Below are positions 30,286 to 54,142 of a stretch of DNA of 64,000 nucleotides, in pieces; the first letter of the stretch is position 1, and every line of letters starts with the position of its first letter. The notes under the pieces are model-generated. The model saw nothing but the letters and a program-made list of their open reading frames with translations. It was not told where the DNA came from and searched no databases. Origin of the DNA: a virus (lineage: Duplodnaviria; Caudoviricetes). The DNA is taken from IMG/VR virus record IMGVR_UViG_3300028833_000061, positions 128,001 to 192,000 of that record; one strand, written 5' to 3'. The position numbers and the translations under genes were made by a program.

Positions 30286-31836
30286 TTATTCCTTCTGCAT
30301 GTCTTGAAGCGCTCCTAGCGCCGTCATGCATTCTGCTATTTTAGATGTTTTTTGGTTCGAAGTTTCGCCACATCGGCTGGTTATGACTGCGTCTATAGCA
30401 GCTAGTTTGTAAGCAGCGTATTTCTCCGCTAATTTCTTAGTTACATAACCATTTAAAATCTTTAATGAAGAATTGTCAACAACAAAATTAGGTTTAGTTC
30501 CTTTTATTGTCGCGGACACTACAGAATCCTCTAGCGAGTCAATGCAAGACGCTTCCTTCAGCTCCTCTTTCAACTCAAAAAGATTCTGTCTCGAGATCGG
30601 AAAAGAGCATCCAAGTGGCCACGCGTCAAAATTTAGATCGTTGCACAGTTTCTGCAAACAGGACGTATCTTTAGCCTCTTTAAGTACTTCAGCAACTTTC
30701 TGCGAAACACCGTTTAAATAAGGCTTAACTGTGTTGAAGTCATCTCCCATCGCATACTTGAAGAAAGACGTCGAATCCATGACAACGCCAGCATCGCCTA
30801 GAACCCTGAAGGCTGCTCCAGGATCAAGTTCGCGAAGCTTGTCTATTGTTGAATCTTTCAAAGGATGTGATGCTATCTTGCACAGCTGTACAAGAAACTT
30901 GTCGCGCGCCGAATCTGCAGAGGCTGTCTTTGTTATAAATCCAACATACTTGTCGTGCATGTCTATAAGCTGATTGGCATACGCTAGTTTCCTGAGTCCA
31001 GAAGGAGACGTGATCGCCAGCCTGTCTGACGCCTCTACACCATAGTATTCAGCAAGCTTCACGGAATCGAACGGAAGCGTGTACGACGCCTCCTTCTCTT
31101 CTTTGTCGTCGTCTTTGTCCTTCTCTTTATTTTCCTCGTCCTTGTTGTCCTTGTCCTCGTCTTCCTCGTCTGGCATTACTTTCATAAGATCCCACGCGAT
31201 TCTATCTGCTGGCTTACCTACAAACGAGATATCGAAGAACTTAGGTTCGTCGTTGAACGTAAATATATGCCTTCCGTCCTCCATCATTTCTCCAAGATGG
31301 TCACGGACATGCTCGCACTCAAGCTCGTCTCCCGCGTGCTTTCTCTTCGCGCCGCAAATAGAGCAACGATCATGGTCTACCATGCAAGCCATCGAAAAGC
31401 AGATCTCGCCATCGCGCTCTAGACGCTCAAGCTCTGGAGCTGCCTTCTCTCTGTCAGCATGTATGAACAGCTCTACACGATCCATCATATCGTTAAAAGC
31501 AGAAGCAATTATATCGCCTATGGACTTCTTGGGGTCCTTATTCCTGTGATGCCTGAATACGTGTCCGAACTCTACAAAAGTCGGATGATACTTCTTGCAC
31601 GCCTCACGAGTAAAACCGTCACCGTTCCTGTTTGCTCTGTATGCCTCTGTGTCACCAAGTGCTACAACGTGAATACCTACATGATTCTTGTCTGGCTTCA
31701 GTTCATCGTAGCTCTTACCAAAAATAGTCTCTGTCTCTTTCTTTTCAGCTGTCTTTACAGAATTGCCGGAGTCGACAATCTCCATGCCGACTCCTATGTC
31801 AGGATCGAACTGCGATGACTGTATCAGCTTTATCAT
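30286..31836 (-). CDS. Prohead maturation protease
   Basis: 516 aa; NRNGDGF, HVFRHHRNKDP.KSIGDI, FSMAC..DRCSICG..CEH, FFDISFVGKPAD motifs of assemblin-fold phage serine proteases. Confidence 0.8.
   Translation of the reverse strand: MIKLIQSSQFDPDIGVGMEIVDSGNSVKTAEKKETETIFGKSYDELKPDKNHVGIHVVALGDTEAYRANRNGDGFTREACKKYHPTFVEFGHVFRHHRNKDPKKSIGDIIASAFNDMMDRVELFIHADREKAAPELERLERDGEICFSMACMVDHDRCSICGAKRKHAGDELECEHVRDHLGEMMEDGRHIFTFNDEPKFFDISFVGKPADRIAWDLMKVMPDEEDEDKDNKDEENKEKDKDDDKEEKEASYTLPFDSVKLAEYYGVEASDRLAITSPSGLRKLAYANQLIDMHDKYVGFITKTASADSARDKFLVQLCKIASHPLKDSTIDKLRELDPGAAFRVLGDAGVVMDSTSFFKYAMGDDFNTVKPYLNGVSQKVAEVLKEAKDTSCLQKLCNDLNFDAWPLGCSFPISRQNLFELKEELKEASCIDSLEDSVVSATIKGTKPNFVVDNSSLKILNGYVTKKLAEKYAAYKLAAIDAVITSRCGETSNQKTSKIAECMTALGALQDMQKE
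30451..30479 (-). promoter_or_regulatory. Candidate sigma70-like promoter for scaffold-capsid genes, inside protease gene
   Basis: TTGACA-17-TTAAAT in a locally AT-rich patch ~170 nt upstream of scaffold ATG. Confidence 0.45.
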
Positions 31837-39405: not shown

Positions 39406-41277
39406 CTAATACGTGTAACCACCTTTTCTTCTTACCCCAGGGTCAAAATAATTTCCAAATTCAACACCCTTGGCCAATCCAGGTATAGGATTGGTACTAT
39501 GTATGTCTGACGTAGATCCATGCTGTGCGTCGTCTATCAGTCTCTGTTTCAAATACGTAGTTCCAAGCCTGGACACCCAATCTCTATCGGTACCGGTTGA
39601 TTTTACTATCGACTGCATGATTGGCATAACATCTATAGGACGATCGTTGGCCACGATGTCGTCTCCTACTCCAAACTTATCCAGGTCTTTAGCGACCCGA
39701 CGCGTTATCTTTGTGCCTATAGTGTAATGCAGCGCAGGCTGCTCAAGATACTTGCCTACAAGAGACGATGCCTTGCCACGCACAGAATCAGGTCTCGGCG
39801 AATATCCACGAGACCATGTAGTATACGTAGTGACATCTCCTGGCAGAAGCTTCCCCTCAGAATCCTCGTTCTCTATCTCGACGTGATTTACAAGTGCTCT
39901 TGCGATAGATTCAACGTTACGCCTATGCGCCGAATATCCAGAGTCGCGAATGGCCTGTGTGAATCTTTCTGCGAAATACCTGCGTCCTTCGCCTATACCC
40001 TTGTACTTCACGACGTCCTTAGGATCTAGCACTCCATCGGAAATCTGATCTCCTGCCTCAAGCTCATCTCCATTCTTAACAAGAAGAGAATATCCAGGCG
40101 CAACATAATGCTGTTCGCCGCCTATTACAACGTACTCTCCGCCCTGCGGTGCCTTCTCTATGGAATCTACAGTTCCATCCTTTTTCGCAACTACAGCTCT
40201 ATCAGGATAATTTTCAGGCACTGTTGTGAGTGCCTTTATCATATTAAAGCCCTGGTATTTGCCGGCGCCGCTAGTAAGGCGACCTGAATGCTTTGTTGAC
40301 AGACCAGCCTGTGCAATTCTCTCACTTATGGCGGAAGCCGCAGTAACACCGAGATTATAGCCAATCTCAGGAAACTTTCCGTTCTCTCGTATTCCTGCAC
40401 AGTGTGCGCAAATTCCGCTGCTTGCCTGACACGTGACAGGTGACCTCACGGCTATGTCTTTTACACCGTCCTTTACAAAATCCTGTATGGTTGCCTTCGT
40501 GATAACTTCGCCTGCCTTATGGCCACCGGCATCATATGCAAGTACCGATCCTATGTTGTCTTTGTCGGTAGCAGACACCGGCATGCCATACTTTGATCCG
40601 CAATCATCCTCTGTCACAACCTGATCTATGGCAAGAGAAGCCAACAGCTTTCCAAGTTCTCCTCCCTTTCGTGTCGCCTGTTTACCTGCGACAACACCGT
40701 TTCTGGCACCGTAAGAGCCAGCCCATAACTCAGCAGGAGAAAGCCCGTCAGCGTATGAATGCCTAATAAACATAGGTATCGGCTTGCCCTTGGTGTCGGT
40801 ATACACACCAGGAGAAGCAAGTAACGCTCCTAACTGAGCCTTGTTTCCTCTCGCCTTGGATTTTACCTGCATCGCGAAAGGGTTGTCATTCTTCAGTGCA
40901 GAATCATATGCACTGTCAAACATAAGACCAGTCATATCTGTATATAACTTGTCCAGAAGAGACCTCTTCTCGTCTTTTGATAACGACTTATCAGCAAGAA
41001 TCCTATTCTCCTGCTCGTCCATCATCTTGTAGACGGCAGACCTGTCAAACGGCGGAAGAGTATCTGACAGCCTAAGCGTTACTCCGCTTTCTACGGCTCC
41101 TCTGTTTCCAAGCTTAAGAAGCTTGTACGATATATCTTTGTATTTGTCCGGTTGCTCGTTTGCTATTTTCGACAGCAACTCGCTGATCCCGTCGGCACCC
41201 ATGACCCTTGTATAGTCACGGTACTCCGGCGGGATCGCATCATTTACGAATATCTGACCTACTGTCGTGCTTAGCAT
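39406..41277 (-). CDS. rpoC: DNA-directed RNA polymerase beta-prime, C-terminal half
   Basis: TTVGQ, SKARGNKAQL, bridge helix GARNGVVAGKQATRKGGELGKLL, EDDCG/RSPVTC/ICAHC Zn site, trigger loop SERIAQAGLSTKHSG. Confidence 0.93.
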   Translation of the reverse strand: MLSTTVGQIFVNDAIPPEYRDYTRVMGADGISELLSKIANEQPDKYKDISYKLLKLGNRGAVESGVTLRLSDTLPPFDRSAVYKMMDEQENRILADKSLSKDEKRSLLDKLYTDMTGLMFDSAYDSALKNDNPFAMQVKSKARGNKAQLGALLASPGVYTDTKGKPIPMFIRHSYADGLSPAELWAGSYGARNGVVAGKQATRKGGELGKLLASLAIDQVVTEDDCGSKYGMPVSATDKDNIGSVLAYDAGGHKAGEVITKATIQDFVKDGVKDIAVRSPVTCQASSGICAHCAGIRENGKFPEIGYNLGVTAASAISERIAQAGLSTKHSGRLTSGAGKYQGFNMIKALTTVPENYPDRAVVAKKDGTVDSIEKAPQGGEYVVIGGEQHYVAPGYSLLVKNGDELEAGDQISDGVLDPKDVVKYKGIGEGRRYFAERFTQAIRDSGYSAHRRNVESIARALVNHVEIENEDSEGKLLPGDVTTYTTWSRGYSPRPDSVRGKASSLVGKYLEQPALHYTIGTKITRRVAKDLDKFGVGDDIVANDRPIDVMPIMQSIVKSTGTDRDWVSRLGTTYLKQRLIDDAQHGSTSDIHSTNPIPGLAKGVEFGNYFDPGVRRKGGYTY

Positions 41278-41954
41278 TACCTAGCCGACCTGGCAACCGC
41301 TTTGTTGTAGAACGCGGCAACCTTGGCGGTAGGAACACCGCGCTGTACGCATCTGACGACGAATCCCTGTGTAAACGGATCCAGTCTTGCAAACATATCT
41401 TCAGCGCGTTTCTGTCTCTCTGCGGCGGATGCCTGCTTTTGCAGATTGCTTGCTGCAACGGCTGCTACGTACCTAGGATCGACGCCTCGTTCCTCGCAAC
41501 GCTTCACAAAACCAGCCTGGTATGCCCTTGTCTCTGTGCTGTTCATTTCTGATGTCTTCTCCTGCTCGTCATTCGAAGAGTCTTCGTTTTTCTTCTTTTT
41601 CTTGTTCTCCTCGTCTGCCACATGCTTATCATAGTCCTTGGCGTACCCTCTAAGGCGCTTATCCTCGAGATAGTTGACAAGCTTCGCCCATCCGGCACCA
41701 TTTAGCATTCCAGCTCCACCGCCAGCAAGGCCACCAACAACAGTTCCAGCAGGACCACCAGCCGACCCAATCATCGCCCCAAGAACACCGCCAAGCGCGC
41801 CATCCACTCCCATATTCCACTTATAGTTACTTGCACGACCGTTAAGATATCTCTCATAATCTGATGCGTCGTCGAACTCGGGCAAATTCAAGAGTCTTCT
41901 GGCGGCTGCATACTCCTCTGGTGTCAGTCTCTTAGCTTTCTTCTGCATGTGCAT
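41277..41954 (-). CDS. Glycine-zipper putative internal virion protein
   Basis: GALGGVLGAMIG..GGLAGGGAG; two GF(V)xRCxxRGV motifs; LQKQAS. Confidence 0.55.
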   Translation of the reverse strand: MHMQKKAKRLTPEEYAAARRLLNLPEFDDASDYERYLNGRASNYKWNMGVDGALGGVLGAMIGSAGGPAGTVVGGLAGGGAGMLNGAGWAKLVNYLEDKRLRGYAKDYDKHVADEENKKKKKNEDSSNDEQEKTSEMNSTETRAYQAGFVKRCEERGVDPRYVAAVAASNLQKQASAAERQKRAEDMFARLDPFTQGFVVRCVQRGVPTAKVAAFYNKAVARSAR

Positions 41955-41958
41955 TCTC

Positions 41959-42504
41959 CTAGCTTAAAGCGGACATGAGCATGTTCTTCAGATCCTTGAC
42001 CTCATCAGCCAAAGCCTGATTTCCGTTGTCAGGAGCAGGCTGTGCCTGAGGCTGTGCGGGTGCTCCGCCGTTTATCTTCTGAGCAAGCTTAGATATCTTG
42101 TCAAACGCAGCAAGAAGCTGTGAGAATGTCAGCTTGATGTATGGCTCACCTTCTGGAGACATCTCCTCTCCGCCAGCAGGCGGAGGTTGCATGCCTGCTG
42201 CAGCTGGGTCTCCTGCCGGAGGTGCAGGAGGCATACCTCCCTGAGGAGGCATTCCGCCACCCATCATTGACGGATCTATTGGCATTCCAGTGCTTGGATC
42301 AATCGGCATGCCCGTGCTTGGATCGACTGGCATACCCGTGGCCGGGTCAATCGGCATACCTGTGGCCGGGTCAATCGGCATTCCAGTTGCAGGATCTACC
42401 TGTTGTCCGCCACCCTGTGCGGCTGGATCTCCTCCTGCCGGAACAAAAGCCTGCTTCTTGAAGCCGGCTTTAACCTTAGCCAGCAAATCTTTGTCTAGAG
42501 CCAT
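41959..42504 (-). CDS. Pro/Gly-rich protein with DPxTGMP repeats and GFKKQA leader
   Basis: 181 aa; five DP(A/S)TGMP(I/V) units. Confidence 0.65.
   Translation of the reverse strand: MALDKDLLAKVKAGFKKQAFVPAGGDPAAQGGGQQVDPATGMPIDPATGMPIDPATGMPVDPSTGMPIDPSTGMPIDPSMMGGGMPPQGGMPPAPPAGDPAAAGMQPPPAGGEEMSPEGEPYIKLTFSQLLAAFDKISKLAQKINGGAPAQPQAQPAPDNGNQALADEVKDLKNMLMSALS
42272..42399. repeat. Degenerate 24 bp coding tandem repeat (DPATGMPI x5)
   Basis: Repeat units differ mainly at synonymous positions. Confidence 0.8.
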
Positions 42505-42513
42505 TTGTTGTCC

Positions 42514-43086
42514 TTACTTTTTGTATCTTATCACGTTAGACCGCTTCCTGCCGTCCTTGCTTAGTATCAGAAAAATAAATTCAGACGCAGCTGAACACTC
42601 GTTATTGTTCCAACCGCCGTATCCGTCCTTTATATTCTTCCAGCTCCTGGACGTCCTTGACGTTGAAATCCAATCCATCTTACCACATTTATAGATATTA
42701 TCAAACCTGTATCCGAAAACTGCCAAGGCTGACGCGTCGTTATCCGCAAGGCCCCATTCCTTAAGTGTTCTGCGAAATCTCGCTCTGGCCCACGCGTAAG
42801 AGAACTTACTGCCTACTGTGACTCTAAGATTTCGTATCTGCACTCCGGCGTGTTCTACCGCCTTCGAGCCGTCTACTCCGCCATACACCCATTTAAGCTT
42901 AGAAAAATCAACCTCGTCGCCCGACTTTTTGTTGTCATTTGCCGTGTCCGGGACAACAAACAGGTCCGCGTCTGGCTGCGTGGCATTTGACGTTTCTGGA
43001 TCAACGCCAAGCTTCTTCAGGATCCTGTTTATGAATCTCTGAAGTTCTTTCTTGATTTTATCTTTTAACTTGCTCATGGTGCTCAT
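42514..43086 (-). CDS. Hypothetical protein
   Basis: 190 aa, amphipathic basic N-terminus; real start may be ATG 43077. Confidence 0.6.
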   Translation of the reverse strand: MSTMSKLKDKIKKELQRFINRILKKLGVDPETSNATQPDADLFVVPDTANDNKKSGDEVDFSKLKWVYGGVDGSKAVEHAGVQIRNLRVTVGSKFSYAWARARFRRTLKEWGLADNDASALAVFGYRFDNIYKCGKMDWISTSRTSRSWKNIKDGYGGWNNNECSAASEFIFLILSKDGRKRSNVIRYKK

Positions 43087-43115
43087 ATAGTAACAGTTAA
43101 AAAAAGATTTAACAA
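43087..43115 (-). promoter_or_regulatory. Candidate sigma70-like promoter
   Basis: TTGTTA-17-TACTAT with TGn extension. Confidence 0.45.
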
Positions 43116-43122
43116 TATAAAC

Positions 43123-43560
43123 CTAAGCGACCATACGCCATCCAGGAAGACCATACTTGTCCGTCGCATCCTTTAGCACGTTCGCAACGAGATACAACTT
43201 CCACCTCTTCCACTGCCACCATCTGAATTTCTTTCTTGCTATAAGCCTTGTATTGTCCTTGAGCTGTTTATTCACAAGATGAAACTCATCCAACGTGCCA
43301 CCCTTGTAATACTTCAAATCGTGTATTGCAACAGCCTCCAGATCGTCTCGCAACAGACTAGACAATATATACCTTATATACGCAGGAAACCTGTCCGGTC
43401 CGACGCCGTTATACTGCTCTCTAAGAACTTCCTCAGGATAAGAATCAAAGATGTCCGCCCCACTCAGTCCGAGTGCTTTTGCAGATTTCACAAGATCCAT
43501 TATGTCTGGAAGCGGGCGGAGAGACTCCGCCTCTACGGTCGTTAGCTCAGAATTACTCAT
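43123..43560 (-). CDS. DUF1353-like protein
   Basis: NGVGP...AVAIHDLKY motif, basic Trp-rich C-terminus. Confidence 0.55.
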   Translation of the reverse strand: MSNSELTTVEAESLRPLPDIMDLVKSAKALGLSGADIFDSYPEEVLREQYNGVGPDRFPAYIRYILSSLLRDDLEAVAIHDLKYYKGGTLDEFHLVNKQLKDNTRLIARKKFRWWQWKRWKLYLVANVLKDATDKYGLPGWRMVA

Positions 43561-43612
43561 GCTGAAAAAGTATCACAGTAGCCAAAAAGAAGCAACAGCT
43601 TGCATTATAATT

Positions 43613-43647
43613 GAAACAGAACCTGGGCCGTAAAAGCCCAGGTTCTG
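43613..43647 (-). terminator. Hairpin / probable terminator after 43666..44856
   Basis: 12 bp perfect stem CAGAACCTGGGC/GCCCAGGTTCTG, short T tract. Confidence 0.65.
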
Positions 43648-43665
43648 CATCCGTACACCTACATA

Positions 43666-44856
43666 CTACGGTCTAGTCGATTCCTCGCCAAGCCCTATAA
43701 GAAGGCGAAGCTCCTCAGGTGTTAGCTTTCTTTTCTTGTTGCGAGAGCCTGTATCAACACCGTCTATCCCGCGAAGGAGCAAATAACCCTGTGGAGATAT
43801 CGAGCCCAGTGGAGCTGCGTTACCAGACGCAGACGTCTGCGGCTTACCCGCTGTCTCCTGAAGCTTCTTATACTGCTCGATTACCTGTCTTGCTTTCTCT
43901 TCTTCACGCAGTCTCTGAAGATCCGCCTCATCCTGTTCCTTAGCAAGCTGCTCCGCCTTTGCTTTCGATGCGAACGACTTGTCTGCCTCAGAGCCGGCCC
44001 TGAGCTTCTGAGACTGCTCCTGTGCGGCAAGTATTTGTCTGAGCAGCGGCGACATTGTTATGCCTGCTATTTCATCAGATCCGTTACCTGCCGTAGAGCC
44101 CCACAAAGGAACGTCAACTGTCTCTTTTACAATGCGACTTGGTTTAAAACCATCAGGAAATAGCTCACGCTGCTTAGCATTGGCTGCCTCTATAAGCTCG
44201 TTGTCATGCTTTATTTTGTTCGCCTTTTGAAGCCACTCCGCATACAGTTTCTTGTTCATCGCCGCTTCTCGTTTGGCGAGATTCCGATTCAGCTCAATTG
44301 CTCGATTATTAGCTTCTCTTACATCTTGGCCCATCAAATATCTCGTTGGATGAAGCAATCCACCATATGTATTTTGTCTTACCTCTTCCTCCGACATCAC
44401 AGGTGCTCTCTTAAGCTTTATAGGCTTAAAAGGCGGTGGATAGCTAATCAGTTCCTGATCTTTGACTTTTTCGCCTCTGACAGGATATGAAATGTTTACA
44501 GAAGCATTATTAAAACCGTTAGTTATGGAGGCTAAACCACCTGGAAGTGTAACAAATCTATCTGTAGCAAGCGGACCGGCAGCATCTGGAGGAAGTATGT
44601 GGTTGATCATTGCTGGATCAGACAGTCTGAATGTCACTGGCTCGGTAGACGACAGATCGTAAAAGCCGCTCTTAAGCTTGTCCTCCTCTTCGCCAGGAGC
44701 GAGACGTACTCCTCCTCCAAGAGGACCTGTTGGCCTGTCAAGACTGCTAGGAGATGTGTCCTCAGGTTTAAGCGGAAGGCCACCGGGCAGTACAACCATG
44801 TCGGCTGCCAACTTCCTCATCGCAGACACGAAGCCATTCTTGAAATTATTCGTCAT
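43666..44856 (-). CDS. Putative internal virion protein with MTNNFKxGF leader
   Basis: Begins MTNNFKNGFVSAMRKLAA; AGGAG RBS. Confidence 0.6.
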   Translation of the reverse strand: MTNNFKNGFVSAMRKLAADMVVLPGGLPLKPEDTSPSSLDRPTGPLGGGVRLAPGEEEDKLKSGFYDLSSTEPVTFRLSDPAMINHILPPDAAGPLATDRFVTLPGGLASITNGFNNASVNISYPVRGEKVKDQELISYPPPFKPIKLKRAPVMSEEEVRQNTYGGLLHPTRYLMGQDVREANNRAIELNRNLAKREAAMNKKLYAEWLQKANKIKHDNELIEAANAKQRELFPDGFKPSRIVKETVDVPLWGSTAGNGSDEIAGITMSPLLRQILAAQEQSQKLRAGSEADKSFASKAKAEQLAKEQDEADLQRLREEEKARQVIEQYKKLQETAGKPQTSASGNAAPLGSISPQGYLLLRGIDGVDTGSRNKKRKLTPEELRLLIGLGEESTRP

Positions 44857-44889
44857 GTTTACTCCTGTAGATGGATTAAATCTGTTTAA

Positions 44890-44916
44890 AGAATACCATA
44901 GCTAAAAAAAAAGCAA
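44890..44916 (-). promoter_or_regulatory. Candidate extended -10 promoter
   Basis: TTGCTT-15-TATTCT with TGG extension; similar element at 43569-43595. Confidence 0.35.
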
Positions 44917-44954
44917 AAGACTATTTATTATAGATGAGGAATTATGGAGGTGTT

Positions 44955-46193
44955 CTACCATTCTTTGTCTATATTCTTCTCGAGCCACCCGCCACGCTGA
45001 TGCCTGTTACCGTGCACCTTGTGCACTATATTCGTTCCGTTTATGTGATAGCCATTATAACCGAGATGGTCTCCCTCTGCAGGAATTACTCGAATACCAA
45101 TCCTCGTGTTGTTCGATATCACGATCTTCTTGCCGTTCTTAAGCCTAAGTACGATCTCGTCGTGGCCATCTGTCTTATCTGGAGTAAACGACTCGACCTC
45201 TCCTTCGCCAGACTCGTAGGTCTCACTCTTAGAGGATGCCTTCTTCTCAACGACCTTGTCGATGTTTCCTGAGCTGAAGCCCATGGACCCATACTTCTTG
45301 TTATCGAATTCAACGACGAACGACTTCCAGCCGTGCTTGTTTTCAGGGTCTATGCGCACGATCGTGCCTATATGGCCCTTCTGTTGGCATCTGATGTTGT
45401 CTGAAACCTTTACACGATCCCCGACTGAGAACGACTTCTCCTTTTCCTTCAGCTCATCCTCGGTAGGAAACTTTGAGTTCGGAAACAGCTTCTTTAGGTC
45501 GAGCGAAGAGGCCTTCTTCTCTGCCACGTTGTATACGAGCTTCCTGTAGCCTTTCGCGTTCTTCGGAGTGGCGTCCTCGAACCCTGCTGACAGGGCGGCC
45601 CGTATCGACGGTTCGTTGTCTGCGAACGCCTCCCACAATAGCCTTTTGACATTCTCCTTCCTGGCTTTCCTGACGGCCGCCTCCACCATGATCTTGGCTA
45701 GACCGTTTCCACGGGCCTCCGAAGAAACGGCAATTATATTGTGAGGAGGAAGTTTCCTGCCTCTCTTGTCCTTGCGCGAGTAAAACTCCTGGAACCCTAC
45801 GGGATCGCCTTTTCCGTCAACTACGACCTGCCTGTCGAACAGTATGTCGTCTGGTACCTTGCGAAGGAAGTCAGGATGTCTTGGAACAAGGTTTGCCCTG
45901 TCGTCGAAGTCAAGCTTGTCGAACACCTTGAGTGTGTCCTCGTACGTTGGATCCTTCTTGAGGCTATACGATTCGGCCTTCTTGCTCCAATCCTCGTACG
46001 GATCAGCTCCGTGTTCCAGCTCCCATTTTATCTGAGCTTCCCTAGCATTCCTTACTGCAGGATTGCCGTTGTTGCTTATGCCAGACGCACCGTCCGTTAC
46101 GATGAAGAAGTTCAGGCCTTGCTTCTTTGCAAGCCTGTTCACGGCGTCAACCAGCTTACGTGCCTTAATCAGCTTTTTCTCTTCCGGTGTCAT
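44955..46193 (-). CDS. Multidomain protein containing GNAT acetyltransferase and KOW/SH3-like domain
   Basis: GNAT motif A IAVSSEARGNGLAKIM and NEPSIRAALSAGF; FSVGDRVKV..GTIVRID..VVEFD; domains bounded by KKA motifs. Confidence 0.75.
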   Translation of the reverse strand: MTPEEKKLIKARKLVDAVNRLAKKQGLNFFIVTDGASGISNNGNPAVRNAREAQIKWELEHGADPYEDWSKKAESYSLKKDPTYEDTLKVFDKLDFDDRANLVPRHPDFLRKVPDDILFDRQVVVDGKGDPVGFQEFYSRKDKRGRKLPPHNIIAVSSEARGNGLAKIMVEAAVRKARKENVKRLLWEAFADNEPSIRAALSAGFEDATPKNAKGYRKLVYNVAEKKASSLDLKKLFPNSKFPTEDELKEKEKSFSVGDRVKVSDNIRCQQKGHIGTIVRIDPENKHGWKSFVVEFDNKKYGSMGFSSGNIDKVVEKKASSKSETYESGEGEVESFTPDKTDGHDEIVLRLKNGKKIVISNNTRIGIRVIPAEGDHLGYNGYHINGTNIVHKVHGNRHQRGGWLEKNIDKEW

Positions 46194-46498
46194 TAAAATC
46201 TAAACTGAAAGCCGGTAACAGGTGCTCCGCTTCCATGTCTTATGTTAAGCGCGTTCACCAAAGGTTTGAAAACCCACTGATTCCTCTGCAGCCAGTTAGG
46301 CTTTTTATAGTGCTCAAGTCCGGGAAGATCTGTTTCTTTCGGCGAATCAGACAAAGAAGCAGCAGAAGACACTGCCTGTAGTCCAGCTGTAGCTGGTGCG
46401 TGTCCTCCCATCCATACAGACGCGAAAGGCAGTGACAAATCTGGCTTCTGCTCTTCTGCCAGCTTGTCCATGAATCCGCGTTTAAAATTTTCCGTCAT
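46193..46498 (-). CDS. Small protein with MTENFKRGF leader
   Basis: Begins MTENFKRGFMDKLAEE; TAATG-coupled to the GNAT gene. Confidence 0.6.
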   Translation of the reverse strand: MTENFKRGFMDKLAEEQKPDLSLPFASVWMGGHAPATAGLQAVSSAASLSDSPKETDLPGLEHYKKPNWLQRNQWVFKPLVNALNIRHGSGAPVTGFQFRF

Positions 46499-46561
46499 TT
46501 TTAAAACCTTTATGCTACTATATCACATAAAGAGCAATTTTAACACACAAAGGGCCTGCAG

Positions 46562-47449
46562 ATGACAAACAACTTCAAACGCGGTTTTACAGACGCTATC
46601 AGCACAATGCAGAAACAGGCCGCACTATCGTGGCGCCCATGGAGGTGGGGCAAAAACAACGCAGAAACGGGAAACAAGTACAACTGGGGAGATTTATGGA
46701 CTGGGCTTGGGGCCGCCGGTGCCCAGACGATGAAAGCAATGTCTCGTGCCGGACACGATCTTGCTAGAGGCGCAAGTTCTCTTCTAGGGCAAAGTGACTG
46801 GGTTGATAAAATAAACAAATCCGAAAAATATACAGATAATTTCTGGAACGAACATACTCCTGGCGGACAGGACTCTGTAAACACATTTGAATACGACCCG
46901 GGTGCGAGACAGGCACTAAGAGCAACTGAATTGATAGGTGCTACTCTTCCTGGTGCGGTCGCAGGGCCATATGGTTTGCTTGCCACGACTGCTGCAACAA
47001 AGGCGGGAACAAGACCGGACACTGGAGTGAAGAGCATTTCTTGGGATGAAAACGGAAGACCTGTTCCTGAGCTAGTTAATGCGGATCCGGCGTACAAGGC
47101 CTGGGATAATGCAACCGGCTTCATGCCATATACGTGGGTTGGAAACCTCACAGGGGAGGTTAACAACGAGATGGCAGACTCAAACTCAGACAAATACTCG
47201 GCTGGCAATGTCGTTGGAGCCGGAGCAACCGGGCTTACCATGGGTGCCATCGATAGAGCGCTTCGATACGCTGGAAGAAAATGGCCAGCCTTAACCGCTG
47301 CCGGAGCAACTCTTGCAGGAGCAGGTACTGGAGCCTGGAGAGCAAAGCCATTCTTGCGCGAATGGAATGAAAATCTAGACACCCTACGTGGAGACGCAGA
47401 AACAGCGCGCCCCGACGTACTTCTGCACAGAACAAACCCTCAAAGGTAA
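46562..47449 (+). CDS. Putative internal virion protein with MTNNFKRGF leader and Gly/Ala-rich segments (only plus-strand gene)
   Basis: Begins MTNNFKRGFTDAISTMQKQAA, homologous to leaders of minus-strand neighbours; fills a gap lacking a plausible minus-strand gene. Confidence 0.7.
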   Translation: MTNNFKRGFTDAISTMQKQAALSWRPWRWGKNNAETGNKYNWGDLWTGLGAAGAQTMKAMSRAGHDLARGASSLLGQSDWVDKINKSEKYTDNFWNEHTPGGQDSVNTFEYDPGARQALRATELIGATLPGAVAGPYGLLATTAATKAGTRPDTGVKSISWDENGRPVPELVNADPAYKAWDNATGFMPYTWVGNLTGEVNNEMADSNSDKYSAGNVVGAGATGLTMGAIDRALRYAGRKWPALTAAGATLAGAGTGAWRAKPFLREWNENLDTLRGDAETARPDVLLHRTNPQR

Positions 47450-47480
47450 AAAAAGCCGACGATTTTTACGTCGCCGGCTC
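47448..47480 (-). terminator. Intrinsic terminator after lysozyme (between convergent genes)
   Basis: Minus strand GAGCCGGCGA-CGTAAAAA-TCGTCGGCTT-TTTTT. Confidence 0.8.
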
Positions 47481-47497
47481 TGTAGTTGTGTAGGCCG

Positions 47498-47947
47498 CTA
47501 AGTTTGCGTGGTTGTTTGAACCTTTTTTATCTTTTCAACGTATGGATCCGTAGATTTCTTTAGCCAGCCCTGAGGACCACCGTTGTGTATTCGAATAAGC
47601 ACTTCGATGGTTGCGGGTTTTCCTGTGCGACGAGTATATGCCGAACCGTACCGAGTAAGATACGCTCTTGCAACCTCATAGGACTTAGCCCTGTCCTTCA
47701 TGTCGTTCAGGGTATATGAAAGGCGGGAGTCGGTCAAGTAGGGCTGCTGGATCTGAAGGCAACCGACAGATAGCTTTCCGTTGGTGTCGGTGACGACCAC
47801 GTCGGTCCTGCCGTTGCTTTCAACAATAGCAACTGCATCGAGAAACGACGTCCAGTCGGCGTCGGTAGTCGGAATAGTCGAAAGGTCGATTCCGAAGGAG
47901 TTGATGACCATGCAGAACGCCACGACCATGGCTGCGAGTTTTTTCAT
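47498..47947 (-). CDS. Lysozyme, invertebrate-type/destabilase-like, with signal peptide
   Basis: AIVESNG (catalytic Glu), GCLQI..Y..D, YLTRY, RIHNGGP signature; MKKLAAMVVAFCMVINSFG signal peptide. Confidence 0.8.
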   Translation of the reverse strand: MKKLAAMVVAFCMVINSFGIDLSTIPTTDADWTSFLDAVAIVESNGRTDVVVTDTNGKLSVGCLQIQQPYLTDSRLSYTLNDMKDRAKSYEVARAYLTRYGSAYTRRTGKPATIEVLIRIHNGGPQGWLKKSTDPYVEKIKKVQTTTQT

Positions 47948-48070
47948 TTGTTTTTTTTTTGTTAAAAAGAATCACGGGCATCAGGAATTGATGTCCGCTT
48001 CTTTTTACCAGGTATCCAACCCGGCATTATATTATAACGCTCAAAAGTCTATTTTTATTCTTACGCAGCA

Positions 48071-49702
48071 CTACAGACCAAACTTCTTCAAGGCCAACGA
48101 TACAGAATCTCTAGTGTCTCTTCCTGGCCATCCCTGTGCCTTGTCTATGTCCTTAAGCCAGTTGGGATTGGCCCTGTAATAAGGTTCAAAATAGTCTGAA
48201 TTCAATCTACTTAGATTATCTATCCATCCATACGTAGGATTGTACACCATCTCATGTCCCAAGACCGTGGTTGGCGTAAAGACAGAAGGACCGACCTCGT
48301 CGAAGAATCTAAGCATCTCGCTACGAAGCTTCTGAGCTTTCGCGTCATCGACAGCAGTCGTACTACCGGCATCGGTTGGTCTAAGTCCACCAGTCTTTCC
48401 TATGTCAGAAACCGCTGTATCTACGTAATTTGTCCCTAGTGGCGTCAACGCATTTGCGTCAAAATCCCACAGGCCTCCGGACATACCAAAGTCAGCTGGC
48501 CTTGAAGAGTCTCCAAACCCGCCATTTACATAAGCGGATATGGAATTCCTGAACATAGGATATTTTCCTGTCTGCTGTACTACTGCTCTTAAAACAGCCT
48601 CATCCAGAGCATTATCAGCGGCCCACTGCCTGTCCTCGTCTGACATTCCGCTGTCACCAGCCCACGCCCCCATCATAGGAGCCCAGCTGTAAGCCATGTT
48701 TCCTATAGACGGATCCATGCTAAAACTGGTGTTCTCGTCTGTAGGAAGCATGGATGCGGCCAACGACGTGAACCTACTCTGACGTGGTGCATATCCTACG
48801 CCGTCTCTGGCATACGTCTCTCTGCCGACAGGCGTCTTCTCTAGCGCAGATGCTTTAGATGCATTGAAAAACGGCGTTCCGGCGTAATCAGCCTCTTGCA
48901 TAGGAGCGCCTTCGCCTCCTGGAGACATGAACGGAACATTGAACCTTAGAGGACGATAAGCCGTTGCCGGCTTGCCTTTGGTGCTATGATTGTTCTTCTC
49001 TGCAGCGGCCGCCGCGTCTCTGTTAACCTTTGCGTAGTCCTTCGGTGTCTGTGCACCCATCATCTCATCAAGGACCGCGATGTTGTCGTCATTTCTCTTT
49101 GCCATAGAATACGCGGCACCACCGTATTTCTGCATTCTACGGCGTTTCTTGTTCCTGCTTCTCCTATCTAGAAACAGATACGTGAGAAGAGCTGTTGTGG
49201 CAAGACCTCCCCAAGTCCACGGACTCTTCCAGTCGACAGACCAGCCACCGTTCGTCTGCTGAGGCGTTGTCGTATTTACAGGATTAGTATTAGGAACATC
49301 TGGAACACCTGCATCAGTACCAGCAGAATCAGCAAGAAGGCTCTCGTCCACTGTAGACTGAGATGGCTGCGGAGGTGCATCGACCTGTGGAGCGGGCGCT
49401 GGCGCTGTTTCTGGTGGATTTACGCTTGCTGTTGGAGCCGCTCCAGGTCTGAACAGTCCTCCGGTCTCTCTCTTTGCCGTGGTTCCAACGGCAGAAGCGG
49501 CCTGCTGTGGCGTGTAGGCCTGACCTTTTGCTCCAGTTGCCTTCCATGCCCTCTGGGCAGCGTCCTGAACAATGTCCTTTCCTACAAGATTGAACATCCT
49601 CTTCTCCCCGTCATTATAGAACAACCACGGCGGAACTGAGTCAGTAGCATAGTCCTTCGTTAGAATGCGTTCGGCTGTCGTCTTCGGTCTTTGAATGGCC
49701 AT
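48071..49702 (-). CDS. Hypothetical protein with one TM segment, putative internal virion protein
   Basis: 543 aa; WTWGGLATTALLTYLFL followed by RRSRNKKRRR. Confidence 0.6.
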   Translation of the reverse strand: MAIQRPKTTAERILTKDYATDSVPPWLFYNDGEKRMFNLVGKDIVQDAAQRAWKATGAKGQAYTPQQAASAVGTTAKRETGGLFRPGAAPTASVNPPETAPAPAPQVDAPPQPSQSTVDESLLADSAGTDAGVPDVPNTNPVNTTTPQQTNGGWSVDWKSPWTWGGLATTALLTYLFLDRRSRNKKRRRMQKYGGAAYSMAKRNDDNIAVLDEMMGAQTPKDYAKVNRDAAAAAEKNNHSTKGKPATAYRPLRFNVPFMSPGGEGAPMQEADYAGTPFFNASKASALEKTPVGRETYARDGVGYAPRQSRFTSLAASMLPTDENTSFSMDPSIGNMAYSWAPMMGAWAGDSGMSDEDRQWAADNALDEAVLRAVVQQTGKYPMFRNSISAYVNGGFGDSSRPADFGMSGGLWDFDANALTPLGTNYVDTAVSDIGKTGGLRPTDAGSTTAVDDAKAQKLRSEMLRFFDEVGPSVFTPTTVLGHEMVYNPTYGWIDNLSRLNSDYFEPYYRANPNWLKDIDKAQGWPGRDTRDSVSLALKKFGL

Positions 49703-49711
49703 AGTAGGCTC

Positions 49712-52700
49712 CTACATGTCTAAAATTTGAACTGGATCGTTCATTCCTATGAGACCTTGTCTGTAGGCCTCCTTGGCATCTTTCGCTGTTCTGAATACCT
49801 TGGGCCTCTTCCTCGTCGCAGGCCTTGTAAGATTGTACAGTCCCATCACCTGCTCGTTCTCAGGCTTGTATCTTGGAGACGACAAATCTGTAAGCGAAAT
49901 TAGATTCTTGGATGGAAGCATCTTCTCGTATGCTTCCCTGACAGCCTTGTCAGACGACGGCACGTGAATGTTAACCTGGTCTCCGTCGAAATCTCCAGCC
50001 ATTGGCGATGCGCTGAACGGGCTTATTCGTATCGACTTTCCGTCAACAAGCGACGGTTTGTATGCCATGATGTTGAACTTGTGCCATGTCGGAGCCCTGT
50101 CCATCAAAACAGGCCTGTTTGCCATCTCCTCCTGAAGCGCATTAAGCGCTGTGTCGTCCCTGCCTCTTATCATATTTACAGCCTGAACGGGACTGTACCC
50201 GCGTCTAACCAACCGACGCTGTACATATGGCTTATACATCTCCCACGCAATATCCTTCGGTATGCCGATCTGGTCCATATCCAGGTTTTCATCTGGAGTT
50301 ATGACCGCTCGTCCTACATTGTCGAGGTTCTTGGCTATGATCTTGGCCTGGAACATAGAAAATTTCGGAGAACCTGTTCCTATAACCTGCCTTATGGCTC
50401 CTTTGATGTTCTTGGACTGTCCCTCTGGCGTTATTGGGTCTCCAAGTCCAAACACAGCGGCTACAGACTTGTACAGGTTCAGCCTCTCGTCCGCTAGAGA
50501 TTCGTCTGCAACAGATCCCTTCAGCGCAGAATAATTCTCGGCGTTCTCTATGACGTCCTTGTATAGATCGTTAAGATCCGATACTAGTTGCGTATCGCCA
50601 AGTTTAGACACGGGCCTGAACTTCGGAGGTATGACAGGAACCTTTGTTATCATCCAATCCTTGGGCTCAAGGCCCTGCTCCTGCATCGATTTAAGATATC
50701 CAAGTACCTTTACCGCGTTGTCTCTTCCGGCGCCTCTCTTGTTCTGGATGTCATTTCTGGCTGCCGATATTGCCTTGTCGACGTCAATGGCCTCAAGCGC
50801 TGACTTTATCGCCTCTCCGCCAGTCTTTCCATTCAACTTCTCTGTGCCTGACAAAATCTTCTCAAGCTGATCTACTGTAAGACCAAGTACACGCCTTACA
50901 GGCTCCTCCATTATAGGATTCGGTATAGGCTCTGGAAGCTTTATAGCTGACCACCTGAGACCGTCTGGACCGCCTGTCTTCCCGAGGTCAAACAAACCGC
51001 CGTCTACAGGCTTCAGATCTGAATTCATCATCTTGGAATTCTTTATAATTCTATTGCCTGCCATCTCGTCGATATCTTTGTCCGTAAGAGGAAGTATAGA
51101 CGTCTTGCTTCCCTTCTCTACGACATTTATTCCTCCGGCCTTCAGCGTCTCCAGGAATTTGTTGTATATGAAAGGAACACCAGGTTCAGGTACTGGAAGC
51201 CCTAATCTAAGTTTGTTCCAGTACTCCTCGTTCTTCGTGCCGCGGATCGTCATCATATCCTTTAGATTCTCTGTCGCGCCGTGTGACAAAAGAGCCGTCC
51301 TGTCGAGACCCGAGACCCTTTTGGCTCCTGAAAATCCGCCTCTTGCCGGTGCTTCGTCCTGAGTATATGCAGCATCGTTTCCTCTGGCAGACAGCTTTTT
51401 CTCTGCGAGATGGTGGAACGCCTGAATGTATACGTAGCCATCACCGATGTTGTGCAGCGTCTTTCCGGTACTTGGGTCAAATATGTCCGAAGAATCCTTG
51501 ACTCCGGCAGCATCAAGCTGTGCCTTCGCCCAAGTCGCCCATCCCTCCTCAGGAGGAAGCTGTGGGATGCGTACCTGCTTTCCGGTCTTCTTGGCAACCT
51601 TGCCAAGAGCTATCTCGATAAGCTGATTCGGGGCAACTCGTGACAGGAATCCCATAGGATTCATTAGAATCTCGTAAGGCTCGTTCGTAACCGCGTCACG
51701 AGGCATCTCGTCGTCTGGACGGACTTCTCCTATTGTACCCTTGAGAGCGTCATGAGGAGACAGCTTGTCTGCTACCTGCTTTGGCGGCGTAGTCACGACA
51801 TTTACCTTGGCGCCGCTTGGCGTCATTACAGCATCGACAACAGTGCCAGGCCAGTCGTGCTCCCACACCTCTGATCTATCTGTAAACGAATTACGCAGCG
51901 TCTTTGACAGCTTGCCGAGCATTGCATCTTTCGCAGACAGAAGCTTCGGCCCGATAGATACGATTATAGGATCGCCTTTGTGAAGTACGGTTCCAGGCTT
52001 GGCTATTCCATTGTCGTCTATGTTTTCAAGCTGCTGCTTCGTAAAAGCCTGCGGGAATGCCGCCATGTACTTCTTCTTGTCTATAAGCACGCCGTTCTTC
52101 TTGTCCGTGTCAAATCCGAACAGCTGTTCGGTAGCCAGCTTCTTGGCCGCAGTCTCGGATATGACTATCGCGTCCTCGAAGTTGCCTGACTTGCCTGACG
52201 GCATAATTGCTACCTTCAGGTTGACGCCCGTATTGAACGATCCTGTTTTCTTGTCCGTGAAGTTGGAGTGGGCTATCAAATCGCCCTTTCTAACGCTCTG
52301 CCCGACCTCAACGGCAGGAAACGTCGAGAACGACGACATTCTATTATGTGGATAGTACTTTACAAGATCGTACGTCCTCTTCTTGCCATCTGCACCCTTT
52401 ACGACGACACTGTCGTCGTTCACAGCAGTCACGACTCCGTCTTCATTGGCTGTGACGGAGCCTATTCTCTTTCCATAATGCTCAAGAAAAGTCTCTTTTC
52501 CATCAGGCATCAAAGACGCGACTAGAGGAACCTCTCCCTTTGCCATCGGAAGATACTGCTCCCAGAACTTTGTAGCATAGAACTGTCTTGCGCCCTGGAC
52601 GCCTGTCGGCATTGGATTGAAGTTGGTTGTCGTAGTAGACATGGACGAGAAATCGGGCACCATGTACGAAACCTCGTTCCTTGCCACCTTGGTAGGAACG

Positions 52701-54142
52701 TTATCCTTCATTGCATACAGGAATTTCGAATTGGGATCCTGTCCAGGAAATGCAACACCACCATCGACAGCCTTTGCCAGGCTTACAAACTCCTTCTTGC
52801 CCGTCTTCAGATTTATAAACTTCGAGTACAGCTGGCCGTCTTTTCCTTTATATGTATTGGAGGCGGCTCTGACATCCACACCCGCATTCATCGACTCAGG
52901 GCCAGCAACAGGATCAACAAATCCAAGATAATCTCCCTGCACATCCCTTGCTTCTGCAGTAACGGCATCTGGAGATCCGATTCCGCCTTGGCCCATCTTG
53001 GTTATGCGGTTCATCTGAACATAGTTCGATATCGGATTTGCCTCTTCGCCAGGAAGCGCAAGACCCGTTCCGCTCAAGAAATGCTCGATGTACGGATTCA
53101 GCGCGCCTCTCGGAATCCTTCCAAGATTACGATCGCGCTTAGCCTTCCACAACAGCTGCTGCGTAAGCTTTCCAGAGTCCTTGTCGACACGTTCCTTAAG
53201 AAAGTCCTCTATCGAATAGACGCTAGAATACCTAGGAGAGTCTCTTCTGTCAGGCTGTTCGTCGCCCCTGGATATGTTTATTACCTTCTGCGAGGCGCGT
53301 AGGAGAAGCTCTGGCGTGATTCCCTTGGTATCTACAAGACCCATAGTGCGCTGGACGACATCCTCGTCCATTCCACACTGTGCAAGGGAATCCTTAACGT
53401 ATCTCGCCATCTCAAACTCATTGGCAAGAGCATCCGCCTTCTTGCCTGCAAGTCTGCGATATAGCCTCTTCATAGCCTGAGAGTCGTGCTTCTTTGCGTT
53501 CTCAAGCGTTACGTCGTTGCCCCAGTACTTTGCGATTGTCTTGTCGTCTACGCCTATGCCCTTAAGCACTGGATACAACGGTATGTGACCCTGGCCAACC
53601 TGCATGCTGAACACGCCTGTCTCTGGATTCATCTCTATTCTGAATCCAGGGCCTGTTCCAGGTTTTACATTGAATTGGGCCTCGTACTCTCCAGACGTCT
53701 TTCGTCTTGCGTACACGCCAGGACGAAGTCTCGACTGATTGACTACAGTGTACTCATTTCCATTAGAAATTATCGTACCTCTGTCCGTGTAATACGGCAC
53801 GTTCATTATAACGTCATCACGCTCGTCTATGACCTTGTTGCTCTTCTTGTCGATAAGTTTCCACGTTCCAGACATCCTCGTCTGGAGCTTACGGTTCTTC
53901 AGAAGAGCGTCCTTCTGCTGTGCTATGGTGAAGCTCTGAGGACTGGTATACCTTACGTTGTCCAGCTCGATCCTGTAGTCGTCGTTCTCAACAGGAAACC
54001 GTTTCTTTACAGAATCCAGAAGTCCATCATATATGAACTGACGTGTCTTTTTTGTGTCATCGAACTGGCGCAGGTCGTCAGGAACGTCGGACACCGTGCC
54101 CGCCGCCTGCTTTTGTGCCAGTGGTATGCTGTCGAGAAGCAT
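49712..54142 (-). CDS. rpoB: DNA-directed RNA polymerase beta subunit fused to N-terminal half of beta-prime
   Basis: beta motifs PYYTDRGTIISNG, NFEDAIVISE, DKLS..KG, MNPMGFLSR, HLAEKKLSAR; then beta-prime GGLFD, PVIPPKFRP, SDLNDLY, DRAPTWH and catalytic AGDFDGDQ (49979-49993). Confidence 0.95.
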   Translation of the reverse strand: MLLDSIPLAQKQAAGTVSDVPDDLRQFDDTKKTRQFIYDGLLDSVKKRFPVENDDYRIELDNVRYTSPQSFTIAQQKDALLKNRKLQTRMSGTWKLIDKKSNKVIDERDDVIMNVPYYTDRGTIISNGNEYTVVNQSRLRPGVYARRKTSGEYEAQFNVKPGTGPGFRIEMNPETGVFSMQVGQGHIPLYPVLKGIGVDDKTIAKYWGNDVTLENAKKHDSQAMKRLYRRLAGKKADALANEFEMARYVKDSLAQCGMDEDVVQRTMGLVDTKGITPELLLRASQKVINISRGDEQPDRRDSPRYSSVYSIEDFLKERVDKDSGKLTQQLLWKAKRDRNLGRIPRGALNPYIEHFLSGTGLALPGEEANPISNYVQMNRITKMGQGGIGSPDAVTAEARDVQGDYLGFVDPVAGPESMNAGVDVRAASNTYKGKDGQLYSKFINLKTGKKEFVSLAKAVDGGVAFPGQDPNSKFLYAMKDNVPTKVARNEVSYMVPDFSSMSTTTTNFNPMPTGVQGARQFYATKFWEQYLPMAKGEVPLVASLMPDGKETFLEHYGKRIGSVTANEDGVVTAVNDDSVVVKGADGKKRTYDLVKYYPHNRMSSFSTFPAVEVGQSVRKGDLIAHSNFTDKKTGSFNTGVNLKVAIMPSGKSGNFEDAIVISETAAKKLATEQLFGFDTDKKNGVLIDKKKYMAAFPQAFTKQQLENIDDNGIAKPGTVLHKGDPIIVSIGPKLLSAKDAMLGKLSKTLRNSFTDRSEVWEHDWPGTVVDAVMTPSGAKVNVVTTPPKQVADKLSPHDALKGTIGEVRPDDEMPRDAVTNEPYEILMNPMGFLSRVAPNQLIEIALGKVAKKTGKQVRIPQLPPEEGWATWAKAQLDAAGVKDSSDIFDPSTGKTLHNIGDGYVYIQAFHHLAEKKLSARGNDAAYTQDEAPARGGFSGAKRVSGLDRTALLSHGATENLKDMMTIRGTKNEEYWNKLRLGLPVPEPGVPFIYNKFLETLKAGGINVVEKGSKTSILPLTDKDIDEMAGNRIIKNSKMMNSDLKPVDGGLFDLGKTGGPDGLRWSAIKLPEPIPNPIMEEPVRRVLGLTVDQLEKILSGTEKLNGKTGGEAIKSALEAIDVDKAISAARNDIQNKRGAGRDNAVKVLGYLKSMQEQGLEPKDWMITKVPVIPPKFRPVSKLGDTQLVSDLNDLYKDVIENAENYSALKGSVADESLADERLNLYKSVAAVFGLGDPITPEGQSKNIKGAIRQVIGTGSPKFSMFQAKIIAKNLDNVGRAVITPDENLDMDQIGIPKDIAWEMYKPYVQRRLVRRGYSPVQAVNMIRGRDDTALNALQEEMANRPVLMDRAPTWHKFNIMAYKPSLVDGKSIRISPFSASPMAGDFDGDQVNIHVPSSDKAVREAYEKMLPSKNLISLTDLSSPRYKPENEQVMGLYNLTRPATRKRPKVFRTAKDAKEAYRQGLIGMNDPVQILDM

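Follow-up and report, generated by a model that had tools for sequence, protein, structure and literature searches.

The complete genome in IMG/VR virus record IMGVR_UViG_3300028833_000061 (Caudoviricetes; 201,401 bp, CheckV 100% complete) was found to encode a single RNA polymerase set. The stretch analyzed here, referred to as the window, covers 64,000 nt of this record (bases 128001-192000), and coordinates are those of the window unless marked otherwise. Two open reading frames (ORFs) make up the set, one for a chain of 1476 amino acids (aa) in which the beta subunit runs into the N-terminal part of beta-prime and one for a detached chain of 623 aa which carries the C-terminal part of beta-prime (beta-prime-C). 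Together these chains are the catalytic core of the phage's sole RNA polymerase, a trimmed enzyme of the bacterial type. With regard to how this core is used, the balance tilts toward a virion-packaged, sigma-dependent two-chain polymerase working without an alpha subunit.

Domain organization of the two polymerase chains

The fused chain was found to match, in order, the Pfam domains Rpb2_3 (aa 366-422), Rpb2_6 (aa 565-921, E 1e-33), Rpb1_1 (aa 1151-1231) and Rpb1_2 (aa 1271-1407, E 4e-23), with Rpb1_5 (E 7e-9) being matched by the 623-aa chain. Sequence searches of the PDB placed aa 348-854 of the fused chain on Thermus beta 378-898 and aa 1097-1472 on Escherichia coli beta-prime 170-549, and the 623-aa chain on mycobacterial beta-prime from ~660 to 1180. 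Among PHROG families, full-length beta and beta-prime were matched at 1e-45 to 1e-58, compared with 1e-9 to 1e-18 for families of the phiKZ/AR9 type. Both chains were also aligned (MAFFT) with E. coli RpoB and RpoC and with their homologues from two cultured phages, Arash and D69. The first chain supplies all of beta along with the clamp and the Mg-binding barrel of beta-prime; the second supplies the bridge helix, the trigger loop and the jaw/cleft modules.

The junction between the subunits is free of a linker. The last block of beta (E. coli ...GINIELEDE, here ...GGINV at aa ~1003-1008) is followed by beta-prime from approximately E. coli residue 15. The fused chain terminates 88 aa past the catalytic AGDFDGD, its C-terminus (...DPVQILDM) corresponding to E. 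coli beta-prime ~552, and the N-terminus of the 623-aa chain (MLSTTVGQ) corresponds to TTVGR at residue 572. According to the alignment, the sole piece missing between the end of one chain and the start of the other is a lineage-specific hairpin of E. coli. A split intein at the break was considered and ruled out, as both ends align directly to E. coli without extra residues.

A preliminary description of this DNA, made from the sequence alone, had proposed two such reading frames and an enzyme colinear with the bacterial one, in which one chain has both double-psi barrels and the other has the second zinc site together with the trigger loop and bridge helix. These proposals are borne out, and the enzyme is close to the bacterial one. 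Both ORFs are open and lie 8434 bp apart, the two barrels are represented by Rpb2_6 and Rpb1_2 on the fused chain, and the alignment with E. coli confirms the colinearity and assigns the remaining elements to the detached chain. The junction, which had been placed at 51095-51125, falls inside 51086-51136, where beta runs directly into beta-prime.

Table 1. Features of the polymerase system and its surroundings (window coordinates, except those marked G000).
Feature	Position	Strand	Basis or remark
Fused chain gene, 1476 aa	49712-54142	(-)	ORF and translation, Pfam, E. coli alignment, PDB sequence matches
Beta part of fused chain, aa 1-~1008	51119-54142	(-)	Alignment to E. coli RpoB+RpoC
Beta-prime N-terminal part of fused chain, aa ~1009-1476	49715-51118	(-)	
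Beta-prime-C gene, 623 aa	39406-41277	(-)	ORF, Pfam, PDB sequence matches, alignment
Seamless beta/beta-prime junction GGINVVEKGSKTSILPL, aa 1003-1019	51086-51136	(-)	Alignment; conserved across family
Catalytic loop AGDFDGD, aa 1382-1388, Asp triad intact	49979-49999	(-)	Translation, family alignment
Beta barrel motif ADKLSPHDALKG, aa 791-802 (E. coli GDKMAGRHGNKG)	51737-51772	(-)	Alignment
Beta flap-tip helix, aa 734-745 (E. coli ~895-907), sigma region 4 docking site	51908-51943	(-)	Alignment
Beta-prime clamp helices, aa ~1188-1234 (E. coli 262-309), main sigma region 2 docking site	50441-50581	(-)	Alignment
Zinc-ribbon deletion site, GGLFDLGKTGGPDG then directly LRWSAI	50942-51001	(-)	Alignment
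Sigma-70-family gene, 236 aa from M29 of a 264-aa ORF	10880-11590	(-)	Pfam Sigma70_r3, E 6e-12
Second sigma gene, just outside the window	G000 117596-118186		Sigma70_r4, E 1e-19
Baseplate wedge gene beside the in-window sigma gene	8344-9963		
Tail sheath gene	22401-24455	(-)	Between in-window sigma and polymerase genes
Head-protease-like gene	30286-31836	(-)	Between in-window sigma and polymerase genes
774-aa protein gene, directly after beta-prime-C	37016-39340	(-)	Conserved polymerase-module neighbor
Intergenic filler, 8.4 kb, ten ORFs (nine on minus strand)	41278-49711		
Leader-bearing genes between the polymerase genes	43666-44856, 46193-46498, 46562-47449	(-), (-), (+)	
Leader-bearing genes elsewhere	G000 743-1285, 3463-3981, 4389-4802, 5034-6047, 200760-201086		

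Conserved, lost and gained elements

The catalytic loop occurs in the family as NMDHDGD, NADFDGD or AGDFDGD, with DxDGD present in all; NMDHDGD instead of NADFDGD is the form of most relatives. In the beta barrel, ADK...LKG of this phage is aligned with GDK...NKG of E. coli, both active-site lysines being kept and the middle being family-specific (family motif GDKLxPxxxLKG vs. GDKxxGRHGNKG). Few parts of the phage enzyme are better conserved than the clamp helices and the flap-tip helix, and the family columns D1189, N1191, L1193, Y1194, K1195 and G1232-G1234 of the clamp helices are invariant.

The N-terminal zinc ribbon of beta-prime (E. coli C70/C72/C85/C88) has been deleted. The resulting gap of 32 columns is common to Arash and D69, the deletion is conserved across the family, and the fused chain has one Cys in total (C256). 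The second zinc site is intact on the 623-aa chain, where C226, C283, C290 and C293 are equivalent to E. coli C814/C888/C895/C898; the bridge helix (aa 191-216) and the base of the trigger loop (aa 313-332) were located on this chain by alignment to E. coli. Lineage-specific insertions of E. coli, including SI3 of beta-prime, are absent from both subunits. The 623-aa chain ends in a phage-specific tail (aa ~490-623, ~130 aa), found in single-chain phage forms and without counterpart in bacterial beta-prime.

Relatives and spread of the layout

A megablast search of 50,697 phage records with the 14.7-kb polymerase region gave no match. At the protein level (tblastn, GenBank phages), the same fused chain was identified in Salmonella phage Arash, whose gp206 is 31% identical over 97%, as well as in Vibrio phages D69, D148 and D181; in all four, beta-prime-C is encoded by its own gene further downstream, and sigma genes are close by. 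Two short peptide patterns were by themselves enough to recover 128 relatives in IMG/VR. Among 79 loci compared, 71 encode beta-prime-C downstream in the same orientation, at a distance which ranges in the relatives from 6 bp to 5.9 kb (mode ~975 bp); at locus L017 the fused-chain stop and the beta-prime-C start overlap as TAATG. The spacing in the present phage is the largest among the loci compared, and represents an unusually large fill of non-conserved genes.

Many relatives possess inteins or LAGLIDADG endonucleases in either chain, and selfish elements concentrate in the polymerase genes. In D181 and D148 (OZ196140, OZ196545) a homing endonuclease gene interrupts the fused gene, which is annotated as five hypothetical proteins. 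An N-terminal InPase domain, sometimes accompanied by LysM and tail-lysozyme domains, is carried by the fused chain of many relatives; InPase has been described from "polyvalent" phage proteins which are packaged or injected (PMC5512222). In many relatives (P0229, P0235, P0247, P0310 and ~40 others) beta-prime-C is extended at its C-terminus by 300-780 aa; these extensions are highly variable, fall into >20 unrelated groups and have no Pfam match. That they might be fusions with the 774-aa protein encoded next to beta-prime-C here was examined with BLASTP and phmmer, which found nothing. Arash also encodes a "structural protein", gp7 (226 aa, L013:7425-8105), which matches aa 221-346 of beta-prime-C (40240-40617) at 30% identity (E 2e-7) and looks like a free-standing paralog of the beta-prime segment around the second zinc site; its counterpart was not found in this genome.

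Alpha, omega and sigma genes

No match to the alpha profiles PF01000 or PF01193 was obtained in the whole 201-kb genome at E<=1 or E<=10 (controls 14/14), nor was omega detected genome-wide with PF01192 at E<=10 (RNA_pol_L and Rpb6 likewise none; controls 14/14). The absence of both genes, described earlier for the window, thus extends to the entire genome. A profile-search negative of this kind may be compatible with a highly divergent alpha or with recruitment of that of the host.

Two sigma-family genes were identified in the genome. By BLASTP, the product of the one within the window matches Arash gp10 (E 8e-15); its family profile can be aligned with regions 2-4 of SigA (E 2e-11), and its homologues are 234-236 aa in length. 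This gene and both polymerase genes are on one strand, among genes for baseplate, sheath and head protease. Across the relatives, homologues of the sigma factor and of the polymerase occur on contigs of the same sizes, consistent with co-occurrence.

Virion packaging, sigma pairing and assembly without alpha

In virion mass spectrometry of Arash, the fused chain Gp206 was the most detected protein with 3516 spectra, above the major capsid protein, with 1210 spectra being recorded for Gp216 and 467 for the sigma factor Gp10; a role in early transcription was proposed by the authors (PMC10585845). By analogy, it is fairly likely that the polymerase is also packaged in the virion of the present phage. 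Judging from the sequences, it is quite probable that the phage sigma factor pairs with the phage core, and assembly which is independent of alpha is again fairly likely.

In the mechanism proposed, the covalent link between beta and beta-prime would hold the two barrels together, taking over part of the job of the alpha dimer. The second chain would dock in the way that cyanobacterial beta-prime docks on gamma, since both breaks fall in the same surface linker, behind the barrel. Initiation would proceed via the sigma-70-family factor encoded in the window, possibly also via the second one encoded just outside it, docked on the retained clamp helices and flap tip. The holoenzyme would be synthesized late and enter the capsid, to be ejected together with the DNA and then transcribe the early genes without the host polymerase. 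It is plausible that the fusion lessens the need for alpha; however, fusion is not required for alpha-free assembly, because the polymerases of phiKZ and AR9 assemble without alpha and unfused (PMC7598289). The fullest form of the proposal, in which the whole holoenzyme (fused core, beta-prime-C and sigma-70-family factor) is packaged and ejected, with the beta/beta-prime link replacing the alpha dimer and the 774-aa neighbor acting as an accessory or packaging subunit, is tentative and somewhat doubtful as a whole.

Several points weigh against packaging. It is transferred from a relative, Arash, of only 31% identity to this uncultured phage, and the Arash authors themselves warn of contamination by abundant enzymes, with 116/272 proteins having been called structural (PMC10585845). 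Additionally, a single polymerase set leaves the transcriber of the middle and late genes unexplained, and no conserved N-terminal capsid-targeting leader was apparent on the fused chain.

The main rival explanation is that the two-chain polymerase is real but unpackaged, being made after infection by the host polymerase (perhaps redirected by a phage sigma factor) and serving the middle and late genes as an analog of the non-virion enzyme of the phiKZ type. Those phiKZ-type phages in which a polymerase is packaged have another enzyme for use outside the virion (PMC7598289), whereas one set is found here; carry-over of abundant enzymes into virion preparations is allowed for by the Arash authors (PMC10585845), and the missing leader would likewise fit. 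Nevertheless, an unpackaged enzyme is considered unlikely. The fused chain of Arash tops the spectra, above even the major capsid protein (PMC10585845), and a sigma homologue, encoded beside baseplate genes, is also present in Arash virions. Furthermore, the polymerase genes lie within the virion block, and the InPase, LysM and lysozyme fusions of the relatives are typical of ejected proteins.

It is also conceivable, but rather improbable, that the phage sigma factors serve the host core only and that the phage core uses another, unrecognized initiation factor in the manner of phiKZ gp68 or AR9 gp226. Many large phages without a polymerase of their own encode sigma factors for the host enzyme (PMC7824862), and the 774-aa neighbor of beta-prime-C, having no known fold, could be such a factor. 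Against this stand the strong conservation of the two sigma docking sites, the occurrence of sigma and polymerase homologues on contigs of the same sizes, and the finding of both together in Arash virions (PMC10585845).

Origin and position of the split

More distant relatives (25-30% identity) were found to be single chains of ~2064-2155 aa with Rpb2_6, Rpb1_2 and Rpb1_5, and these share the phage-specific C-terminal tail. A quick maximum-likelihood tree, rooted at its midpoint, was built from 47 rows of the beta-prime-C region; bacteria are thinly sampled in it and its branches are long. In this tree all fused forms of phages are set apart from the bacterial rows, Rhizobium phage RHph_TM30 and unnamed beta-prime rows with a support of 100 in the Shimodaira-Hasegawa-like approximate likelihood ratio test (SH-aLRT). 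Twenty-two two-chain forms, including those of Arash, D69 and this phage, form one group (SH-aLRT 90) nested among the single-chain forms. Since the two-chain group is nested inside single-chain forms, the split looks secondary, and appears from the sequences to be one cut of an ancestrally complete single-chain fusion. The manner in which the tree was obtained is to be counted against this reading. The break would accordingly be derived yet fixed in one subclade of an originally single-chain fused lineage, and variable genes would later have filled the space between the two polymerase genes.

The cut site is the linker after the beta-prime barrel; from the coordinates of the PDB matches, cyanobacterial beta-prime starts ~10-17 aligned residues later. 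The enzymes of phiKZ and AR9 are reported in a review to be cut at the cyanobacterial position as well (PMC7598289).

The preliminary description had regarded the architecture as an unusual one arising from fusion plus split. Both events are indeed present, and they are better read, on the tree, as a secondary split of an ancestral single-chain fusion. The layout itself is not unusual but a hallmark of a large phage lineage with cultured members in GenBank (Arash, D69/D148/D181), and the sigma genes and likely virion packaging had not been described.

A further possibility is that rpoBC was captured recently from a bacterium in which the two genes are naturally fused, and was cut afterwards. 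Such fusions are textbook features of Helicobacter and Wolbachia. Capture of this kind is very improbable here, given that identity to any bacterial subunit is ~25-30%, that a C-terminal tail and the loss of the zinc ribbon, neither of them seen in bacteria, unite the phage forms, and that these constitute a separate clade with a support of 100.

Integrity of the reading frames

Five independently assembled contigs contain the identical 1476-aa sequence. Both the junction and the chain end, the latter to within a few residues of ...NDP(I/V)xI, are shared by >120 protein clusters (60-99% identity), and the break has a family signature, ...NDP(I/V)xI(xx) stop and then M..T(V/L)GQ, at the same position in Arash and D69. 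The start of beta-prime-C was assessed using the best 150 of 1188 representative clusters which match the 623-aa chain at E<=1e-30. Among these 150 the match starts no more than ~30 residues from the cluster's own first residue in nearly all, and most align from query residues 1-5, with few being extended or truncated at the N-terminus. In Arash, peptide coverage of Gp206 by virion mass spectrometry was 100% (PMC10585845). Because the identical ORF is on five contigs and the junction and chain end recur in >120 clusters, an assembly error or frameshift at the junction is excluded in practice. Although the 8.4-kb insertion between the halves is unusually long, it is scarcely credible that the layout reflects either such an artifact or a nonfunctional beta-prime gene broken by an insertion, as junction and break recur in hundreds of clusters, some of only 30% identity, in which the catalytic motifs are all intact, Gp206 is fully covered by peptides and no intein remnants adjoin the break.

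Genes between and after the polymerase genes

The filler between the two genes includes a lysin-like protein of 225 aa, a Pro-rich protein of 181 aa, a GNAT/DUF3465 protein of 412 aa and several proteins with an MTxxFKxGF leader. None of its ten genes is conserved at this position in 79 related loci (tblastn). The possible exception is the Pro-rich protein, the similarity of which to relatives is composition-biased. This Pro/Gly/Met-rich protein (41959-42504(-)) has an N-terminus (..F.K.A.VP.GGDPA..GGG) resembling that of L022:14347-15078, and a similar protein occupies the modal ~975-bp gap of distant relatives (unfiltered BLAST, biased sequence). The 225-aa protein (41277-41954(-)) is directly upstream of beta-prime-C, its stop/start junction abutting that gene, and has weak matches to PHROGs for tail-associated lysin and endolysin and to YidB-like proteins.

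The 412-aa protein (44955-46193(-)) combines a GNAT acetyltransferase domain with DUF3465 at its C-terminus. Other phages have GNATs which modify the alpha subunit of the host polymerase, and by analogy a role for this protein as a packaged host-takeover effector is conceivable. The leader MTxxFKxGF(x)D/A..M..K(x)A begins at least eight otherwise unrelated proteins encoded between the polymerase genes and elsewhere (Table 1), and is absent from both polymerase chains.

In 61 of 71 related loci, the gene which comes next after beta-prime-C encodes a counterpart of the 774-aa protein, the conserved neighbor being ~750-860 aa long in the family. The 774-aa protein has weak similarity to the Arash "structural protein" gp218 and no Pfam or PHROG matches. 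An AlphaFold2 model (predicted local distance difference test score 65, predicted template modeling score 0.34) gave no Foldseek match in the PDB at E<=0.001 and one uncharacterized phage homologue in BFVD. Faint Foldseek rows to chymotrypsin-like proteases over its beta-rich middle are not trusted, and no usable match was found in the ESM Atlas. The protein is a candidate for an accessory or packaging role alongside the polymerase.

Comparison with known polymerases

The closest known systems are those of Arash (Gp206, Gp216 and sigma Gp10; OQ632216; PMC10585845) and Vibrio phages D69, D148 and D181 (OZ195729 etc.), which have the same fused chain and the same break residue, although identity to this phage is only ~30%. 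The zinc ribbon is deleted identically in the Arash/D69 type, and Arash resembles this phage in having a sigma homologue in the structural module and structural-protein homologues downstream. The gap between the genes differs (4.8 kb in Arash and 0.6 kb in D69 compared with 8.4 kb here), and a helicase gene, which follows beta-prime-C in Arash, is not found after it here. In the Arash and Vibrio records and in the Arash paper the genes are labeled just "beta" and "beta-prime", with no mention of a fusion (PMC10585845). The single-chain phage fusions (P0389-P0403, P0408) have the same type of junction, the same tail and the same clade, opposed to bacteria, but are unsplit and have 25-30% identity to this beta-prime-C.

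In cyanobacteria and plastids, rpoC1 (gamma) and rpoC2 divide beta-prime likewise in the linker after the Mg-binding barrel. Unlike this phage, cyanobacteria make beta as a chain of its own and have alpha, omega and the zinc ribbon; judged by the PDB match coordinates their cut is at a different residue, and it is of independent origin. The phiKZ/AR9 polymerases are also phage-encoded, without alpha or omega, have a virion-packaged form and possess a beta-prime split after the barrel (PMC7598289). They differ in having beta itself split into two or three chains and no fusion, whereas beta is intact and fused here, as well as in having no sigma-family factor, two paralogous enzymes per genome and a far greater divergence.

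Fusions in Helicobacter and Wolbachia and an engineered E. coli beta-beta-prime tether likewise join the C-terminus of beta to the N-terminus of beta-prime and are functional. As background, both the natural and the engineered fusions are full-length, with the zinc ribbon kept, no second break, and alpha and omega in the cell. The virion polymerase of crAss-like phages is a single large two-barrel chain which is packaged in virions. It has no detectable sequence similarity to RpoB/RpoC, whereas the present enzyme matches Pfam at 1e-23 to 1e-33. Mention of this crAss-like enzyme is also made with the mReC lineage (PMC7481178), which, together with the Kleczkowskaviridae (Rhizobium phage RHph_TM30), is likewise bacterial-like and readily aligned to RpoB/RpoC. 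However, those phages have separate full-length beta and beta-prime (1127 aa for beta-prime of RHph_TM30) and a T4 Gp23-type capsid protein. Membership of the mReC lineage was ruled out, as no Gp23-type capsid protein was found in this genome and the chains are not separate and full-length.

Meaning for phage multisubunit polymerases

Full-text literature searches found the Arash isolation paper and no description of the fusion or split, and the architecture is not covered in a review of jumbo-phage polymerases, a 2021 comparative study or a 2026 review (PMC7598289, PMC7824862, PMC13282480). This phage is a new member of a large lineage unnamed in print, and the lineage is a variant of phage multisubunit RNA polymerase. 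In reviews up to 2026, phage multisubunit polymerases are described as highly split and without homologues of alpha, sigma and omega (PMC7598289, PMC13282480). The lineage departs from this description in aligning throughout with the bacterial enzyme, in having covalently joined catalytic subunits and in encoding sigma-family genes, yet alpha and omega are both missing from it.

The lineage is therefore a compact system, provided by nature, in which the need for the alpha platform, omega and the beta-prime zinc ribbon can be probed, and allows the delivery of a sigma-dependent enzyme through a phage tail to be tested; as Arash is cultured on a laboratory strain of Salmonella, biochemistry is feasible. 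From the nested variants with one, two or several chains it can be read at which sites, and how frequently, large polymerase subunits tolerate a cut; the linker after the barrel has been cut in cyanobacteria, in phiKZ-type phages and in this lineage. If the packaging of the holoenzyme holds true, no virion polymerase that depends on sigma would precede this one, and the enzyme would be a naturally minimal core of the bacterial type without alpha or omega.

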